UHGV virus genome: UHGV-2201191
Direction: 5' to 3' (one strand)
From: a virus
DNA: 32,884 nucleotides
Numbering within the stretch: position 1 is the stretch's first letter; every line of letters starts with the position of its first letter. Made by a program: the position numbers and the translations under genes. Shown one piece after another: positions 1 through 32,884 of this stretch. The notes under the pieces were generated by a model, which ran no database searches, was not told the DNA's origin, and worked only from the letters and a program-made list of their open reading frames with translations.

Positions 1-864
1 CGCCAGGCGGAAGGCCTGGGCCTGGCGCAAGGGGATCTCTTCCGGGAAATCCCCTGACAGAAGTTCCGCCAGTTCCGCGTCCATGTAAGGCCGTGTGCCG
101 TTCGGGTCGGTATAGACAAAGGTGGTATTGCCGTCGTTTTCGTTGTTGACGCGCAGGGCGTCTTTCAGGATGCTGCGGATCTTCTTCTTGTTGGCTTCCG
201 TCACGCCCTGGGCATTGCTTTCCAGCGTGGCGTTGAAGCTGGCCGGAGCGGGACGGACGCGGGAAACCTCAAGACCTGCGGCACGGGCCTCGTCTGCGCT
301 TATGGGGGCAATGTTCATCCCTGAAAGATAGTCGAATGGGGGATAAGGCGTCCCAAACCTCGAAAGCCGTATCCATATATCGGAGCAAGTCAACGCATAG
401 CCGACAATATCCCCCCGGATGAACCCGGAGGATACCGCCTCCGTGGCTTCTTCTTCCAGCCCCGCTCTGGCCCGGTTCCAGCGTTCGGCCCAATAGCGGG
501 GATCTTCCCTGCCTTGGGAGCGGTAAAATTTGAAGGCGGCCGTGTCTTCATCCTGTGTCCAGTTGTACCAGTTCCGGTATCCGTGGGCCATGGCCGCGTT
601 GGTTTCCATCACGACCTGGATGCGGACCCAGGAGGACAAATCCTGAATGCCTCCCTGACCCGTCGCCGGGGGACGGTAGCCCTGCTGGCGCAGGGTTTCG
701 CGGATGGCCTGCTGCGCTTCCTCGTAGCTCAAGGCGCCGGATGCGACTTTCGCGGCCTTGTCCTCGAAATCGGACAGGATAACGCCGGGTTCCACGCCGG
801 ACACGAAAAAAGCGCGCTCGGCGTAGTCGTTGGCGATCATCTCTCTCTGGGCGGCAGTCATCAT
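1..864 (-). CDS. Phage head-region protein, C-terminus beyond window start. ATG at 864..862 overlaps the upstream stop as ATGA.
   Basis: The minus-strand frame was checked codon by codon and is open from 864 to 1 (no tta/cta/tca in plus frame 1). It is translationally coupled to the 861..1337 ORF and sits downstream of the capsid gene. It is not in the supplied ORF list because its stop lies outside the window. Confidence 0.5.
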   Translation of the reverse strand, partial: MMTAAQREMIANDYAERAFFVSGVEPGVILSDFEDKAAKVASGALSYEEAQQAIRETLRQQGYRPPATGQGGIQDLSSWVRIQVVMETNAAMAHGYRNWYNWTQDEDTAAFKFYRSQGREDPRYWAERWNRARAGLEEEATEAVSSGFIRGDIVGYALTCSDIWIRLSRFGTPYPPFDYLSGMNIAPISADEARAAGLEVSRVRPAPASFNATLESNAQGVTEANKKKIRSILKDALRVNNENDGNTTFVYTDPNGTRPYMDAELAELLSGDFPEEIPLRQAQAFRLA

Positions 865-1337
865 CGGTAGGTGCTTCGCATCGGGTTGAACCAGGGCCGG
901 CGCGTGTAGCGCGGCATCATGTAGGCGGGGTCCGCGGGAGCGGATCCGTCCACGCTTTCCGGCAGCATGTCGCCCCGGGCATAGAGAGCCAGCATCGCGT
1001 CGGCCGATTCGGCGGCTTTCTGGCGCGTTTCGGTCAGGTTGAGCTGGTAGCGCAGGTAGAGCTGACGGATGATCATCGGCCATGCCAGGGCGCGCATGCT
1101 CTGCGGAATGTCGTACATGCCGCTGTTTTGGAGCGATTGCCGCAGGGCGAGGTTGTTGGCCAGCGCCCCGCGGATGGTCATGCAGACATCGTTGACCGCC
1201 TCCATCATGACACCCTGGTAGTCCAGGCTGCGCTGCTCCCCGGCCTTCACCAGGGCGTTGCGCTCCATGGTATTGAGGCCTAGAAGGCGGTCGGCTTCGT
1301 CCGTGGTGATCGTGGACCAGGCGGGAAAGGCGGACAT
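861..1337 (-). CDS. Hypothetical phage head-associated protein (158 aa)
   Basis: Minus-strand ORF immediately downstream of the capsid gene, coupled by ATGA to the next gene. No recognisable motif. Confidence 0.45.
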   Translation of the reverse strand: MSAFPAWSTITTDEADRLLGLNTMERNALVKAGEQRSLDYQGVMMEAVNDVCMTIRGALANNLALRQSLQNSGMYDIPQSMRALAWPMIIRQLYLRYQLNLTETRQKAAESADAMLALYARGDMLPESVDGSAPADPAYMMPRYTRRPWFNPMRSTYR

Positions 1338-5052: not shown

Positions 5053-5336
5053 GTCGGCGCCCTGCAGCGGGTCCCAGTATTCATACCATTGGGGACGGTT
5101 GGGCTGCCGGCTTTGTTCCGTCAGGGCTCGCCGGGCGAGATCCGTCTCCAGCTCCTTGATTCTGGTCTCCTGTTGGGCGACCAGCTTCGGAGCGTTGAGT
5201 ATATTTTTTAATGCGTTGAACCTGATCCGGAAGCGAAAGAAAATGGTGGTTGCAGGGGAAAGAATTGGACTTTCAATTCGGGGACAGGAACCCCGCGTGA
5301 TACCGTTTCACCACCCTGCGATTGATTACATATCGT

Positions 5337-8849: not shown

Positions 8850-9875
8850 TCAAAAAAGCGTCAGTTGGGGGTTGTAGTTCGTGAATCGTTCGAGTAAAAC
8901 CCGGAATGCAGTTGCCGCCACTGCAGGAACTTGCCCGTTGCCAATGGCTTTAAGTCGGTCCACTCTAGCGGCCACCCCATGAGCCACTCGACCCACGTCG
9001 GGTTCAGCTGACCACCACTCCCCGCAGTCATTTGTTTCCGCTCGTCCGGCGTGATAATTCCCTTGGCTTCCAGGGCTTTCATTTTCTGAAAAGCCCCACT
9101 TCCTCCGCACATGCCTTTTGTTCTTGGGGTAGGAAATCTGCTGGCTATAGTTCCCAAATTCGGGGACTTCCGATTGCCCTGGCTGGAGCCGCTGTCCTTC
9201 CAATCCCGTGAGGTTGGAGTCGGGAATTTTGCAATCTGGTCGTTCAGGTTCCGGCTTCGGGCTGGGTCTTCCCATCTTCTGGCTTCTCCCGTCCTGAAAT
9301 CCCTGGCTTGCGGGGTTGCAAATTTCATGGCCAGCCCCAGCGGCGGATTTGACAGCAAGTATCCACATGCGCTTTCTCTCATGCGGGGCGCCCACGTCGT
9401 CCGCTCCCAGCACCATCCATTCCGCATCGTACCCGATCGCGGCCAAGTCTCCAAGAACACATCCAAGCCCGCGAGAAGTGAGCATTGGGGAGTTCTCCAC
9501 AAAGACATATTGAGGTCGTACCTCGCCAACAATCCGGTGCATTTCCCGCCAGAGGCCGGAGCGGGCGCCGTCAATGCCGGCGCCTTTTCCTGCGGCTGAA
9601 ATGTCCTGGCACGGGAAGCCTCCAGATACCACGTCAACAAGGCCGCGCCACGGTCGTCCGTCAAAGGTGCGTACGTCATCCCAAACCGGGAAAGGCGGGA
9701 GTAAGCCGTCATTTTGTCGGGCGAGCAGTACGCTTGCGGGATAGGGTTCAAGTTCGACAGCGCAAACGGTGCGGAATCCGAGCAGCTCGCTTCCAAGTAT
9801 GCCTCCACCAGCGCCCGCGAAAAGAGCCAGCTCATTCACTCCCCCTCCTTTCTCGGCTCCCAGTAAACAGGCCAT
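8850..9875 (-). CDS. DNA (cytosine-5)-methyltransferase, orphan (no adjacent endonuclease)
   Basis: Motif I LFAGAGGG, motif IV GGFPCQDIS (catalytic PCQ), ENV motif VFVENSP, and C-terminal motif X AIGNGQVPAVA. A long variable TRD lies between them. Confidence 0.9.
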   Translation of the reverse strand: MACLLGAEKGGGVNELALFAGAGGGILGSELLGFRTVCAVELEPYPASVLLARQNDGLLPPFPVWDDVRTFDGRPWRGLVDVVSGGFPCQDISAAGKGAGIDGARSGLWREMHRIVGEVRPQYVFVENSPMLTSRGLGCVLGDLAAIGYDAEWMVLGADDVGAPHERKRMWILAVKSAAGAGHEICNPASQGFQDGRSQKMGRPSPKPEPERPDCKIPDSNLTGLEGQRLQPGQSEVPEFGNYSQQISYPKNKRHVRRKWGFSENESPGSQGNYHAGRAETNDCGEWWSAEPDVGRVAHGVAARVDRLKAIGNGQVPAVAATAFRVLLERFTNYNPQLTLF

Positions 9876-15247: not shown

Positions 15248-15643
15248 TCAGTTAAAAAAGGTTTTAATCAGCAGGAAGAAGACAAATAAGATAAATCCTC
15301 CTGCCAAGACGATCAGAGACCACACAAAAAAGGCCATGAACTTTTCAAAGAGCCTTTCTATCCAGAAGGCTTTGGGCTTGGCATCATGTGTGTAGTTCCA
15401 GCTCCGTTCCGCGTCGTCCGGGATGCCGTTGAGGCGTTCCCTGGCGCACAAAGGACACAGAAACCGGGCGCAGAAGACGCCGTTCTGATGGTCCCCTACC
15501 AGGGACATCCATGAAGTCGAGGCTTTCAGCGGCTCGGCGCACATGTAACAGCGGGCCGTCTTGGACGGGTGCGGGTTGTCGGTGAGCGTTTCCACCATCC
15601 CCTTGTAGGGGCCCCGGTCGATCAGGTGTTGATACGTAGTCAT
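15248..15643 (-). CDS. Hypothetical Cys-rich protein with C-terminal transmembrane anchor (131 aa)
   Basis: CYMC...FCARFLCPLC motifs. C-terminal TM segment FFVWSLIVLAGGFILFVFFLLI. Confidence 0.4.
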   Translation of the reverse strand: MTTYQHLIDRGPYKGMVETLTDNPHPSKTARCYMCAEPLKASTSWMSLVGDHQNGVFCARFLCPLCARERLNGIPDDAERSWNYTHDAKPKAFWIERLFEKFMAFFVWSLIVLAGGFILFVFFLLIKTFFN

Positions 15644-15951
15644 TTTCTGTTGTTGGTTAAGTATTTTTCCACGTCTTCCATGTTGTAAAGGGTTCCTTTT
15701 CCAACCCCTTCCAGCCTTCTTATGTTCTTCCCGGCCCGTGCGAGGATGTTGTCCATCTGACGGGACGAAATGTCATAGTAAATGGCTAATGTGGAGCTGC
15801 GTGCGTACTTTTTTTCGGTTGCTCCGAAAAGGGAAACGGAAGACGATTCCGGCGTAGAAGGAACAGGCGTGGTTGCCAGCTCCCGCAATACTCCGGCCAG
15901 CGTTTCCAGCGCGGTCGCAAGGGTGGTCATTGTTGTTTTGTTTTCGCTCAT
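15640..15951 (-). CDS. Putative HTH DNA-binding protein, excisionase/AlpA-like
   Basis: The segment IYYDISSRQMDNILARAGKNIRRLEGVGKGTLYNMEDVEKYL resembles excisionase-type HTH_17 domains. Confidence 0.45.
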   Translation of the reverse strand: MSENKTTMTTLATALETLAGVLRELATTPVPSTPESSSVSLFGATEKKYARSSTLAIYYDISSRQMDNILARAGKNIRRLEGVGKGTLYNMEDVEKYLTNNRK

Positions 15952-16521: not shown

Positions 16522-16758
16522 TTATCGGTTGGCAGTTTCGGTTTTCTTTACAGGTGGTTCACCACCTATAGATAAAAAAACTCCCTTCTTTTTGATTCTC
16601 TTTTTTAGAGGTGGTTCACCACCCGCGAGTAAAAAAACTACTTGCCCGGAAACTGATCTTTGTTCTTTCCGCGCAATCAATTTTATTTGCTCAAATAAGT
16701 CAATAGGGAGGTTAATTGTTATTTGCTTTTTCTCGTATTTCTCGGGCGATGTTTTCAT
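16522..16758 (-). CDS. Ribbon-helix-helix (CopG/Arc-like) DNA-binding protein with a repeat-encoded C-terminal tail
   Basis: KQITINLPIDLFEQIKLIARKEQRSVSGQVVFLL has the beta-strand/helix/helix RHH signature. The 3-prime third is the duplicated 31-bp element. Confidence 0.5.
   Translation of the reverse strand: MKTSPEKYEKKQITINLPIDLFEQIKLIARKEQRSVSGQVVFLLAGGEPPLKKRIKKKGVFLSIGGEPPVKKTETANR
16552..16639. repeat. Two copies of a 31-bp element: AGGTGGTTCACCACC, a 6-nt spacer, then TAAAAAAACT. Each copy is preceded by a T-run.
   Basis: Copies lie at 16552..16582 and 16609..16639. The core is a 16-bp near-palindrome. The flanking T-run/A-run gives larger dyad symmetry. Confidence 0.7.
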
Positions 16759-17143
16759 AATCTTCGGGTGTAAGGATTACGTTTTGAGTTTGTTGAACTA
16801 AATAAGCGGTAATGATTTCAGTCATCGTCATATTCAGTTCTTTTGCTCTCTTTTGAAATTTTCGGAAGAGGACGATGGGGATCCATACTGAAATCTGTTT
16901 TTTGTCTATCTTCCGTTGACTTGGCATGCGCTCAACATAATCGGTGGTTAACCACCAGTCAACACTATTTTTCATTTTTTTTACATTTTTTTCATCCAGC
17001 ATCATTCCGGATCTCCTTCCTAATTTTTTTTCATCATTAGAATTAAGCGCGTAATGTAGATAAGTAGACACATCTACATTGATATGCACACCTAAGGAAT
17101 CTTTGATCGCCGAACGAGGAAACGAGGAGATTGACGAGTTCAT
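16712..17143 (-). CDS. Protein with C-terminal ribbon-helix-helix domain (143 aa), paralogous to the downstream RHH protein
   Basis: KQISVWIPIVLFRKFQKRAKELNMTMTEIITAYL parallels the RHH motif of the 16522..16758 protein. It is coupled to the upstream TM peptide by ATGA. Confidence 0.5.
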   Translation of the reverse strand: MNSSISSFPRSAIKDSLGVHINVDVSTYLHYALNSNDEKKLGRRSGMMLDEKNVKKMKNSVDWWLTTDYVERMPSQRKIDKKQISVWIPIVLFRKFQKRAKELNMTMTEIITAYLVQQTQNVILTPEDYENIAREIREKANNN

Positions 17144-17286
17144 TTCTTCTTCTCATCCTTTTGAGTGATGTTTCGCAAGATCCTCTTTGTGGTTCGCCGG
17201 CAACCCTCCACAATGCCAAGGCCGAAACAAGCGCCACCGAACATCACAGCCAGCAAGAAAAACACAAGCATCACGTTACCCGACAT
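17140..17286 (-). CDS. Small hydrophobic membrane peptide (48 aa), below the ORF-track cut-off
   Basis: Hand-translated: MSGNVMLVFFLLAVMFGGACFGLGIVEGCRRTTKRILRNITQKDEKKK. RBS AAAGGG upstream. Its stop overlaps the ATG of the RHH-143 gene. Confidence 0.35.
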   Translation of the reverse strand: MSGNVMLVFFLLAVMFGGACFGLGIVEGCRRTTKRILRNITQKDEKKK

Positions 17287-17351
17287 AGACGTAACCCTTT
17301 CTTGCTGAAAATTTATCTCCTAATACACTAATATTTAGCGCGTTATAATGC

Positions 17352-17364
17352 GGGGGGGGGGGGG
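17352..17364. repeat. Homopolymeric G13 tract
   Basis: Seen directly, about 65 bp upstream of the TM-peptide gene on the other strand, next to TATAAC/TAAATA -10-like elements. Confidence 0.9.
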
Positions 17365-17421
17365 TAATATTTCCTGTTTTTTCATGAGATTTGAAGCCTT
17401 GTGGCTCCGTTAAGACGATTT

Positions 17422-17622
17422 GTCATGACTTTCGCGTTCAGAGGATGACAAGTCATGACATTCCATTATTCCAAGGCTCCAAGATTGACGACTGCTGAAA
17501 ATGTGATATAAAAGTGCTTTCCTGAATAAGGATCCTTTCTATTCATTCTTTTTCCGCCTGCGTCGGGAGACGCGGGCGGTTTTTATGTGCGAGGGTTCAT
17601 TTTTTCTGTGTCATGACATGTC
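17422..17622. promoter_or_regulatory. Three copies of the palindrome GTCATGAC in the int-upstream non-coding region. The third copy is a 10-bp palindrome TGTCATGACA overlapping GACATGTC.
   Basis: Seen at 17422..17429, 17452..17459 and 17610..17617. Confidence 0.6.
17554..17585 (+). terminator. Intrinsic terminator-like hairpin plus T-run in the non-coding region
   Basis: CCGCCTGCGTC ggga GACGCGGGCGG followed by TTTTTA. No plus-strand protein gene lies upstream. Confidence 0.45.
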
Positions 17623-17801
17623 TCCCTTTACATACTCCTGCATCCGTGGATGCGGCTTTCTGGCGGTGCTATACGGTATGCTGTACAGGTGACCCGTTAA
17701 AAACTTATGAACAAGACACTAAATCCCGTACGCGATGCCAATTTTCGTCAGCACACGACGGAATGGGCCTTGATTTTCCTACGTTTTGCGCAGTTTTGAG
17801 C

Positions 17802-17870
17802 GCACCTGAAAGCACCTGACAGAAAAAAGTACCCTGTACATGCGACTGTACCTTGTCTAAGGACTGTACA
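17802..17870 (+). promoter_or_regulatory. Direct repeats immediately upstream of int
   Basis: GCACCTGA occurs twice with 10-bp periodicity. Three copies of CTGTAC(A) lie at 17834, 17846 and 17864. The last ends 6 nt before the int ATG. Confidence 0.45.
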
Positions 17871-17875
17871 GCACT

Positions 17876-19063
17876 ATGGCAGGCATCATCAAACGCAACA
17901 ATAAATGGGTGGCCGTCTTCCGGTCTCTGGACGGAAAAGAGCTGCGGAAAACCACCGGAATCGACGTGGTTCCCAGGGCGCTTCTCCCAGGAGCGAATAA
18001 AAAATCGGTCATGTCCCAGAATGAAGCGCGGGCGCGTCTCGTCGCCCAGGAGATGGAGAAGGAAGCCCGCTATGGGGTTTTTGACCTGGACAAGGTGAAG
18101 GCCATTGCCGGAGATCAAGCGGGCGTGCTGAAAGCCACCATGAACGGCATGACGGTGAGCCGGTTCCTGTTTGACTGGCTGGATGGACGGAAAAACAAGA
18201 AGCGGGCCTATGAGCGGGACGGCATGGCCGTCCGCCGGCTGCTGGCGTACCTCGGAGACCGACGGAATATGCCCCTGGCCGCCTTGAATAAAGGCATGGC
18301 TAAAGATTTTGTAGAAACTGAATTAGAGCGCGTTTCCGCAGGCACCGTCATCCGCTACGTGTCCACGCTTTCCACGGCGTTCAATGCCGCTGTAGACCGG
18401 GAGATCCTTTCCCGGAATCCGTTCCGGGGCGTCATGCCTTCCCGGTCGGACCACCAGGCGGAAAAGCAGCTGCGCGGCGCGTTCACGATGGAGGAAGTAA
18501 ATACCATCATTGAATGCTTTCCCGACGAATGGCCGGATCTGGTGCGGGTGTGCCTCTACACCGGAGGCCAGCGCCTCGGAGACCTGGCGACGCTGAAATG
18601 GGAGCAGATTGACTTGAAGAACTCCTTCCTGTTCATGACCACGCAGAAGAGCCGGCGCCGCATGAACAAACCGATCATCCAGCCCTTGAAAGAGGTGTTG
18701 GAAAGGCGTCTGCTCAACCGGGTGAACGATTACGTGTTCCCTTTGGCGGCACTTCGCCATGCCCATGCGGGCGGGCGTTCCGACAAGCTTTCCACGGAGT
18801 TCACCACACTCTTGAAAACGTACGGAATCATCCGCGAAATGCCCGGGGAAGTAAGAGGCGACCGTCACCGGCTTTCGGAAAAGAGCTTCCACAGCCTCCG
18901 GGCGACCGCCGTGACCGTCCTGCGCCTGTCCGGGGTGTCCCCGGATTTATGCCGCTTCATCGTCGGACACGATTCCGAAGAAATTGAAAGGGTCTATTTC
19001 CGTCCGGATTCTGCGGACGTCCAGGCGGCCATGAGCAAGATCGCAGTCGGCGTGGCCCGTTAG
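17876..19063 (+). CDS. int: Tyrosine recombinase / phage integrase
   Basis: N-terminal arm-binding-like domain (MAGIIKRNNKWVAVFRSLDGKELRKTTG). C-terminal catalytic motifs HSLRAT, VGH and RVYF (Tyr). Confidence 0.9.
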   Translation: MAGIIKRNNKWVAVFRSLDGKELRKTTGIDVVPRALLPGANKKSVMSQNEARARLVAQEMEKEARYGVFDLDKVKAIAGDQAGVLKATMNGMTVSRFLFDWLDGRKNKKRAYERDGMAVRRLLAYLGDRRNMPLAALNKGMAKDFVETELERVSAGTVIRYVSTLSTAFNAAVDREILSRNPFRGVMPSRSDHQAEKQLRGAFTMEEVNTIIECFPDEWPDLVRVCLYTGGQRLGDLATLKWEQIDLKNSFLFMTTQKSRRRMNKPIIQPLKEVLERRLLNRVNDYVFPLAALRHAHAGGRSDKLSTEFTTLLKTYGIIREMPGEVRGDRHRLSEKSFHSLRATAVTVLRLSGVSPDLCRFIVGHDSEEIERVYFRPDSADVQAAMSKIAVGVAR

Positions 19064-19079
19064 CCTCCTTTCCTGCCCC

Positions 19080-19120
19080 GATCATGTTGTTGACGTCAAC
19101 AAGATGATCCGTCTTCGTTT
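19080..19120 (+). terminator. 30-bp near-perfect palindrome GATCATGTTGTTGACGTCAACAAGATGATC followed by a T-rich tract. Likely the int terminator, possibly part of attP.
   Basis: Two mismatches in 30 bp, centred on GACGTC. It lies between the convergent int and GT genes. Confidence 0.5.
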
Positions 19121-32621: not shown

Positions 32622-32884
32622 TTGACGGGCAAAACATAAGGGGTTGGCAGTTCCACGTGGAGAGCTCCGGCGACGTCTTCCACTTTCCTGACGTGCCCGG
32701 AGGTAAGGCGCCATGTGAATTCCCCCTCTTCCTTCCGGGAGACGGGGATGAACTGGCGGGACGATGCGGCAGCCACATCCGCGGGCCGGGCGAACCAGAC
32801 GTCTTCCGGCTCGGAGAACAGGCGGTCCAGCAGGCGGTCCAGGTAGAGGGATGCCAGCGTTCCGGCCACCGCTCCCCCGGCTGC
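32612..32884 (-). CDS. Hypothetical protein, N-terminus probably beyond window end (track start is GTG at 32869)
   Basis: Open frame running to the window edge. Confidence 0.3.
   Translation of the reverse strand, partial: AAGGAVAGTLASLYLDRLLDRLFSEPEDVWFARPADVAAASSRQFIPVSRKEEGEFTWRLTSGHVRKVEDVAGALHVELPTPYVLPVKWL

Follow-up and report, generated by a model that had tools for sequence, protein, structure and literature searches.

P4, P22, HP1 and mycobacteriophage L5 are well-known examples of temperate phages and islands that insert at the 3′ end of a tRNA gene and bring along their own copy of this end. Two other kinds of known systems are relevant here. Homopolymer tracts in promoters underlie phase variation at the poly-C tracts of Bordetella fim2 and fim3, the poly-G tract of Neisseria porA and the poly-C tract of opc. 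Morons, described in lambdoid phages, are accessory genes that lie between phage genes and have their own promoter and terminator. We analyzed the region at positions 17287–17875, immediately upstream of the integrase gene int, in the virus genome UHGV-2201191. This 32,884-bp stretch (hereafter the window) was identified by BLAST against fetched loci as the complete, circularly permuted genome of a temperate Akkermansia phage. The phage attachment site attP lies at 17724–17740, a position that rests on the attL and attR junctions of integrated copies and on empty attB sites in the host. We are confident, short of certainty, that the region consists of two adjoining modules, attP on the right (~17586–17875) and conserved phage backbone on the left (17287–17584).

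The integration module is an ordinary tRNA-targeting module of the lambda type, and there is nothing unusual in the attP assignment. As in lambda, the integrase is a tyrosine recombinase with the full catalytic set, and a short core is flanked on either side by repeats in an attachment site of ~220–290 bp. It differs from lambda in that the core is a tRNA 3′ end and not intergenic, that attP is upstream of int, with the last CTGTAC copy ending 5 nucleotides (nt) before the int ATG, and that the putative arm motif is CTGTACA. As in P4, P22, HP1 and L5, the core is the tRNA 3′ end including CCA, the tRNA is rebuilt at attL and int lies beside attP. Unlike in those systems, the target is the Akkermansia tRNA-Glu(UUC), of which two copies are used, and int/attP cassettes for tRNA-Glu or tRNA-Ser can replace one another on a common phage backbone, the cassette being inverted in this member. 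The features of the integration module are as follows.

17586–17723, plus strand: P arm of attP, with the third GTCATGAC at 17610–17617 and CTGTACAG at 17681–17688
17724–17740, plus strand: attP core TCCCGTACGCGATGCCA, an exact match to the final 17 nt of the host tRNA-Glu(UUC), CCA included
17741–17875, plus strand: P′ arm and int leader, with GCACCTGA twice (17802 and 17812) and CTGTAC at 17834–17840, 17846–17851 and 17864–17871
17876–19063, plus strand: tyrosine integrase (Int) of 395 residues, matching Pfam PF00589 (E = 3.2e-13) and PF13102
19080–19109: 30-bp palindrome 17 nt after the int stop, right boundary of the int cassette

Related loci are cited below by our own L numbers. The exact 395-residue Int protein was found in integrated form in L018 (a 102-kb contig) and L020. 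In these loci identity to the window begins at 17724, which marks attL, and to the left of the junction is host DNA with a Na+/alanine symporter gene and a gene for tRNA-Glu(UUC), called at 9790–9865 in L018 and called also in L020. At attR, identity to the window stops at 17740 and host DNA lies beyond it in L023, L024, L025, L028 and L030, loci that were retrieved by look-up of the neighbouring 143-residue protein. The block common to attP, attL and attR is therefore 17724–17740. Empty attB sites, in which the tRNA 3′ end is followed by the host downstream flank, were found in more than 120 metagenome contigs. The attL flank (399 nt) and the attR flank (400 nt) are present together in at least 62 of the empty-attB contigs, and they are exactly 17 nt apart in all 11 both-flank contigs with printed coordinates. 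The attB sites occur in two contexts, a prfA side and a ThiS/MutL side. Several contigs carry both contexts, so two host tRNA-Glu(UUC) copies serve as attB. Since the core is the exact tRNA 3′ end including CCA, the tRNA is rebuilt intact at attL. Integration places int 135 nt downstream of this rebuilt tRNA and leaves the P arm and core beside host DNA at attR.

An earlier note on this sequence had proposed that the region contains attP and carries the 3′ part of a host small-RNA gene. Both proposals are borne out by the junctions and the empty sites, the host fragment being 17 nt of tRNA-Glu. The note had expected the host-identical segment within 17380–17590, whereas it is actually at 17724–17740. 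It had also named the palindrome at 19080–19109 as the place to which the attachment site might have to be moved. Sister phages on the same backbone carry int cassettes of two other types, type B directed to tRNA-Ser(GCU) (L017, L022 and L029) and type C directed to tRNA-Ser(GGA) (L001, L021 and L027), and in both the P arm of attP adjoins the palindrome directly, which speaks for attP at the palindrome and not upstream of int. In this phage, however, attL, attR and the empty attB sites all put the crossover at 17724–17740, and the palindrome is intact inside prophages L018 and L026. The junction data thus refute the move for this phage, and we regard an attP at the palindrome as extremely improbable.

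A number of additional observations were made at the integration sites. L025 and L026 lie 31.9 kb apart on the same 174-kb contig and form a tandem double lysogen at the tRNA-Glu/prfA attB. L026 retains an attP-like junction between the two prophage copies, and both copies have a run of 15 G in the tract described below. In three empty-attB contigs, including L075, the upstream flank of one tRNA-Glu copy is joined to the downstream flank of the other, a pattern that points to rearrangement between these loci in some strains. In the type B and C cassettes, the rebuilt tRNA is immediately followed by a strong terminator hairpin (L022, 8231–8300; L021, 8352–8420). No clear terminator is seen at the corresponding place (17741–17800) in the tRNA-Glu cassette of the window, so in lysogens read-through from the tRNA gene could reach int, 135 nt downstream and on the same strand.

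The catalytic residues R233, K258, H339, R342, H365 and Y374 are all present in Int and are invariant in 54 homologues. Its AlphaFold model (pLDDT 83.9) finds its best structural matches in full-length chains of lambda integrase. At the N-terminus the model has three strands (residues 3–7, 10–16 and 22–30) and a helix (42–66) with a pLDDT of about 83, a predicted fold like that of lambda Int. The structural alignment covers 393–411 columns with full-length lambda Int, versus about 308 with lambda Int 75–356, which is without the arm-binding domain. At the level of the predicted fold, Int would thus possess an N-terminal arm-binding domain; the Pfam arm-domain match is not significant (E = 0.26). 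Between cassette types, Int identity is 72–73% in residues 1–60, 39–40% in residues 61–200 and 64–66% in residues 201–395. A conserved N-terminal domain with a shared flanking motif, together with a diverged core-binding domain and a different core, would be as arm-type and core-type recognition predicts.

The P arm is retained at attR in the five loci mentioned above (L023, L024, L025, L028 and L030), and the P′ arm at attL in L018 and L020. Within the P arm, 17590–17620 and 17655–17723 are conserved in diverged type-A copies. The motif CTGTAC(A) occurs once 36 nt to the left of the core (17681–17688) and three times to the right (17834, 17846 and 17864); the left copy is a fourth one, absent from the list in the earlier note. 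CTGTACA gives 6 strand-hits in the window versus 1.2 expected, a count reached in 0 of 100 shuffles, and 5 of the 6 fall within 17681–17871. The GCACCTGA pair is real, but its count is not significant (3 matches versus 1.04 expected, a count attained in 7 of 100 shuffles). The layout is shared by cassette types B and C, in which the P arm has a single CTGTACA, the core is a tRNA 3′ end and a repeat triad precedes int. The triad is CTGTACA-N5-CTGTACA-N13/14-GTACAG and ends 4–8 nt before the int ATG. Because the same layout recurs in sister cassettes that target tRNA-Ser, all four CTGTAC(A) repeats, the P-arm copy as well as the three P′-arm copies, are probably arm-type sites for the N-terminal domain of Int. 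The proposal of the earlier note that the CTGTAC repeats beside int are arm-type sites is therefore plausible. Against this assignment, the three int-proximal repeats overlap the int leader and could be, or also be, an int operator. Against the two-module reading of the region as a whole, a position weight matrix (PWM) scan found no convincing sigma-70 promoter for int in 17586–17875 (best score 6.2). The cores and arms of some tRNA-Ser cassettes are mixed. Among L033, L040, L041 and L031, the tRNA-Ser(GGA) 3′ end is combined with type-B arms and the tRNA-Ser(GCU) 3′ end with type-C arms. Such mixtures would be expected if the integrases cross over in the shared GGTTCGAATCCCTCCC segment, using both tRNA-Ser genes.

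Comparison with the sister phages also defined the boundary of the backbone. The window is closely related to Akkermansia phage DTMo-2021a (CP084202.1, L017; 31,946 bp), which matches in blocks of 81–98% identity; window base 1 aligns with its base 18143 and window base 32884 with its base 18144. Backbone homology ends at 17451 versus type C and at 17584 versus type B, the latter being the last T of a terminator run, and resumes at 19080. The int/attP cassette of the window (17585–19079) is inverted relative to types B and C, with breakpoints exactly after the terminator T-run and at the palindrome 19080–19109. As a result of the inversion, attP faces the early control region instead of the palindrome. 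Judged by these alignments, the left half, 17287–17584, is conserved phage backbone and is outside the recombination module. Its features, together with the first gene beyond it, are listed below.

17140–17286, minus strand: 48-residue open reading frame (ORF) with one hydrophobic segment, first gene of a minus-strand operon spanning almost the whole genome
17310–17338, minus strand: candidate early promoter from the PWM scan, with −35 CTAAAT (17338–17333), a 17-nt spacer and −10 TAAATT (17315–17310)
17344–17349, plus strand: perfect TATAAT, 2 nt before the G-tract, with a weak −35 (CTAATA, spacer 18)
17352–17364: homopolymer of 13 G (the G-tract), conserved in position and hypervariable in length among relatives
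17365–17451: backbone block present in all cassette types, with TCATGA at 17382–17387 and the inverted repeat TTGTCAT (17420–17426)/ATGACAA (17445–17451)
17422–17429 and 17452–17459: two GTCATGAC palindromes, 30 bp apart from start to start
17466–17483: insertion point for plus-strand accessory genes, empty in the window, placed by comparison with L038 and L170
17485–17512, plus strand: promoter-like site TTGACG-N16-TG-a-TATAAA, with a score of 10.7 that is reached by 12 of 65,768 window positions
17554–17585, plus strand: intrinsic terminator (hairpin and T-run, on the plus strand only), left boundary of the int cassette

Phages with other integrases share the G-tract, the terminator and two of the three GTCATGAC palindromes, so these are not sites specific to this integrase. 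The earlier note had read the whole region as a candidate attP; these features of it are outside the recombination module. The GTCATGAC palindromes deserve separate consideration as possible core-type or arm-type recombinase sites of attP. The copies at 17422, 17452 and 17610 are the only three in 32.9 kb (0.34 expected; 1 of 100 shuffles reaches 3) and cluster in the region, and the copy at 17610 belongs to the P arm and is retained across the type-A cassettes. On the other hand, the copies at 17422 and 17452 are 265–300 bp from the core, past the terminator. The first of these is in the backbone of all cassette types and reads GTCATC in type-C relatives and in L023, L033 and L034; the second occurs only in cassette types A and B. 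The tRNA-fragment core has no such motif. A role of the palindromes as recombinase sites, as the earlier note had it, is therefore improbable.

The palindromes can be viewed instead in the context of the backbone block. The first two copies are within an 11-nt perfect inverted repeat, TGTCATGACTT/AAGTCATGACA, and the conserved element under the first palindrome is TGTCAT-N18-ATGACA (17421–17450). In the alignment, the inverted repeat of the 17365–17451 block shows no compensatory changes; its arms are invariant, or broken on one side in L031. RNA helices in the block were rejected on these grounds, and a protein operator fits better than an RNA helix. The two ribbon-helix-helix (RHH) proteins of the early operon, of 143 and 78 residues, are the obvious candidates to bind the operator-like repeat.

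The G-tract is the only run of at least 8 G or C in the window. Among 30 relatives with a complete tract and near-identical flanks, its length ranges from 5 to 27 G, in line with the length variation anticipated by the earlier note; lengths of 5, 10, 11, 16, 18 and 27 were each seen once, 8 and 12 three times each, 9 and 13 four times each, and 14 and 15 five times each. The flanking sequences, GCGTTATAATGC and CCTGTTTTTTCATGAGATTTGA, are almost invariant. Even near-identical relatives differ in the tract. Compared over window positions 17000–17740, L025 (99.5% identity) and L024 (98.4%) have 15 G and L030 (96.9%) has 9 G, versus 13 G in the window. No backbone lineage is without the tract, even where the flanks diverge by ~20%. 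A distant relative, L003, has a classical divergent helix-turn-helix gene and no G-tract, which says nothing on the tract itself. Poly-G slippage has been shown experimentally at a G9 tract in A. muciniphila (PMC13055324; see also PMC3048395). Length variation among relatives and slippage at a host G9 tract together indicate that the G-tract is very probably hypermutable.

Some caution is required in reading these lengths. Some of them may be assembly or sequencing errors; the G27 in L032 and the tracts at contig ends are suspect, and the CP084202.1 assembly was built from Nanopore data with subsequent polishing. Four IMG/VR contigs stop within the tract or at its edge, L181 ends 3 nt beyond it and L178 turns into unrelated sequence there, although some apparent IMG/VR contig ends are splits in record storage and not true ends. 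L179 and L039 have sequencing-adapter sequence fused to the phage DNA immediately ahead of the tract, a sign of assembly trouble at this place.

The tract resembles those of fim2/fim3, porA and opc in that a long G or C run lies in a promoter region and varies in length among close relatives. It differs from them in that it is in a prophage control region and not at a surface-structure gene, its range (5–27) is much wider, and it has several candidate positions relative to the promoter elements. The G9 tract of A. muciniphila Amuc_1413 is similar in that the host species slips at poly-G; that tract is a coding-frame switch and not a promoter tract (PMC13055324).

How the tract might act depends on the promoters around it. 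Transcription start sites in A. muciniphila show −35 and TATAAT elements (PMC4782308). A standard sigma-70 scan, which applies a strict rule to the last −10 base, found nothing in the region, and a custom PWM scan of all 65,768 window positions was used; it gave one strong site and several ambiguous ones in the region. Transcription from the early promoter candidate CTAAAT/TAAATT is predicted to start at ~17303, which leaves 17 nt to the ATG at 17286. No other minus-strand candidate keeps its position in all cassette types, where this one scores 6.4–10.2. In the window its score is 6.4, under the lowest tabulated cutoff (~120 window positions reach 7.4). The plus-strand TATAAT is kept in most relatives. 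Three geometries are possible. In the first, which uses the conserved minus-strand candidate, the tract falls at about −49 to −61, 14 nt upstream of the −35. In the second, the plus-strand TATAAT would start transcripts within the tract, which would occupy +1 to +13. In the third geometry the tract is in the spacer of a weaker minus-strand TATAAC candidate, where 13 G give a 17-nt spacer with a poor −35. The proposal of the earlier note that the tract lies in a −35/−10 spacer thus stands as one of three possible geometries, but as the least conserved of the three. So wide a range of lengths speaks against the tract being strictly a spacer. A further possibility is coding. A minus-strand ATG at 17385 opens the frame MKKQEILPPPP... 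through the C-tract, and the frame downstream would hinge on the tract length. We rejected this upstream ORF as probably not coding since its peptide is changed by A-run indels in L023 and L033.

Two explanations of the tract have to be weighed. In one, the tract is a contingency element in which slippage alters the operator–promoter distance or phase, the promoter spacer or the first transcribed bases, and thereby switches the early operon or the divergent transcript. Changes in tract length may alter the promoter geometry and hence the output of either transcription unit, although our confidence in this step is low. The differences between relatives with almost identical flanks, the persistence of the tract in all backbone lineages despite ~20% flank divergence, its being the sole G or C run of this length in the genome, the slippage of the host at a G9 tract (PMC13055324), and its location 2 nt after the plus-strand TATAAT and 14 nt upstream of the minus-strand −35 candidate are all consistent with this explanation. 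However, the 5–27 range has no preferred length and goes far beyond the working tolerance of a −35/−10 spacer, the operon holds replication and recombination genes for lytic growth so that an OFF state would be costly, and assembled homopolymer lengths are error-prone. The promoter candidates at the tract also weigh against it: they are ambiguous, with scores of 6.4–7.9 that dozens of window positions equal or exceed, and the TATAAT beside the tract is replaced by TACAAAT in L023, L031, L033, L034, L045, L174 and L177. We consider the contingency element possible but doubtful. The claim that the tract is a heritable, reversible switch of the single early operon or of a divergent lysogenic transcript, in prophages widespread in human-gut Akkermansia, appears rather unlikely to us; if it is true, prophage inducibility or the lysogen phenotype would itself be phase-variable.

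In the other explanation, the tract is a functionless slippery spacer that is tolerated between two control elements, with part of the variation coming from sequencing or assembly. All three reading phases and all lengths occur without a pattern, contigs often break at the tract, one record derives from Nanopore data, and the tract of L001 is interrupted (G11-A-G4). A neutral homopolymer should decay by acquiring point interruptions, yet 28 of the 30 complete tracts are uninterrupted runs of at least 8, the exceptions being L035 (5 G) and L001, and the uninterrupted tracts span lineages with up to ~20% flank difference whose sequences immediately next to the tract are strongly conserved. We give the functionless spacer a little under an even chance. 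A regulatory effect of the G-tract, if there is one, is the one part of this locus that could prove new.

To the right of the backbone block is a slot for accessory genes. L038 has an insert of ~0.95 kb between window positions 17466 and 17483, and in L170 the match to the window begins only at 17483. The L038 insert holds a two-gene cassette (342–1152, minus strand of L038), which in the window orientation is read on the plus strand toward the conserved terminator; it encodes a protein with a SocA/Panacea antitoxin domain (PF13274, E = 1.7e-18) and a 109-residue ORF with weak membrane-protein matches (CrgA, under the Pfam cutoff). The arrangement resembles a moron, as relatives have, in the interval from the early control region to the plus-strand terminator, a plus-strand gene for a Panacea-domain antitoxin and another small ORF. 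Unlike in a moron, the slot is empty in the window and only the promoter-like site and the terminator are left. The standard scan missed the 17485–17512 site because its last −10 base is A. Diverged variants preserve both the position of the site and the AAAATGTGATATAAAAG block, and have TTGACG, TTGCCT or TTGAAA as the −35. The terminator starts 41 nt after this site; 9 of the 11 pairs in its stem are G-C, the loop is 4 nt long and the T-run reads TTTTT (dG = −28.5 kcal/mol, z = −4.1), confirming the strong plus-strand hairpin and T-run reported in the earlier note. Three stem pairs vary, always C-G versus U-G, and the minus strand would get C-A mismatches; pairing is therefore preserved only in plus-strand RNA. 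The short plus-strand unit would yield an RNA of ~67 nt and would halt plus-strand transcription before attP and int.

Whether 17485–17585 is a phage gene for a regulatory small RNA of ~67 nt is less clear. The high score of its promoter-like site, the conserved spacing and −10 block in diverged variants, the retention of the unit even when accessory genes are inserted upstream, the restriction of stem variation to G-U-compatible changes, and a UUCCUGA and a CU-rich stretch common to the variants all argue for such a gene. Against it, type C phages are without the whole unit, and the short unit shows no conserved structure besides the terminator and no compensatory changes in consensus folding. 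No known RNA family matches the small RNA suggested in the earlier note. In a scan of the whole window against Rfam 15, only the phage tRNA-Arg passes the gathering score, and at permissive thresholds the best match in 17200–17900 has 21.9 bits versus a threshold of 43. A predicted pairing of the short RNA with the early leader and its ribosome-binding site was rejected, as 164 of 500 shuffles were as good. The unit may also be just the terminator of the accessory slot with a remnant or insulating promoter. We therefore treat the small-RNA gene as a tentative candidate with the balance against it. A longer plus-strand RNA, 17352–17590, was also considered and rejected because its fold is no better than that of shuffles (z = −1.07).

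The credible genes of the window are all on the minus strand, with the sole exception of int. Minus-strand open frames of at least 80 codons leave three gaps, of 555, 232 and 160 nt, and the largest corresponds to the 17287–17875 region, which agrees with its description in the earlier note as the only long non-coding stretch. Every sequence feature listed in that note was found in place. The 48-residue ORF that opens the operon is called as a gene in L021 and L028, and the exact protein occurs in 62 blocks of the public collection; it has no match in Pfam or PHROG. Its end overlaps the start of the ORF for the 143-residue protein (16712–17143, minus strand), which has a weak Arc-like RHH match at residues 75–120 and is found exactly in 662 blocks of the collection. 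The 3′ end of this gene overlaps by 47 nt the gene for the 78-residue RHH_5 protein (16522–16758, minus strand) in the same operon. A 103-residue ORF at 15640–15951 appears by eye to encode an excisionase-type helix-turn-helix and has no significant Pfam match; a 71-residue gene in relatives L172 and L180 has a weak match to PF12728 (HTH_17). The window is without a divergently transcribed CI-type repressor gene. In some relatives the opposite-strand genes are an HTH_3 gene (L021 and L030) or SieB (L022–L026 and L028). A phage-borne tRNA-Arg(CCT) is located at 5247–5320 (minus strand), within a block 96% identical to CP084202.1. The published Akkermansia YL44 prophages, of 38.8 and 36.9 kb, are unlike the present phage in size (PMC8008629).

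The exact attP/attB pair, with its 17-bp core and two tRNA-Glu(UUC) genes, gives precise prophage boundaries for this family in many human-gut Akkermansia assemblies. Tools for site-specific integration in Akkermansia could be made from the interchangeable int/attP cassettes for tRNA-Glu, tRNA-Ser(GGA) and tRNA-Ser(GCU). Should the G-tract prove to control expression, cell lineages would differ stochastically in prophage induction or lysogen traits, and such variation would affect how strain stability and phage–host dynamics are to be read.

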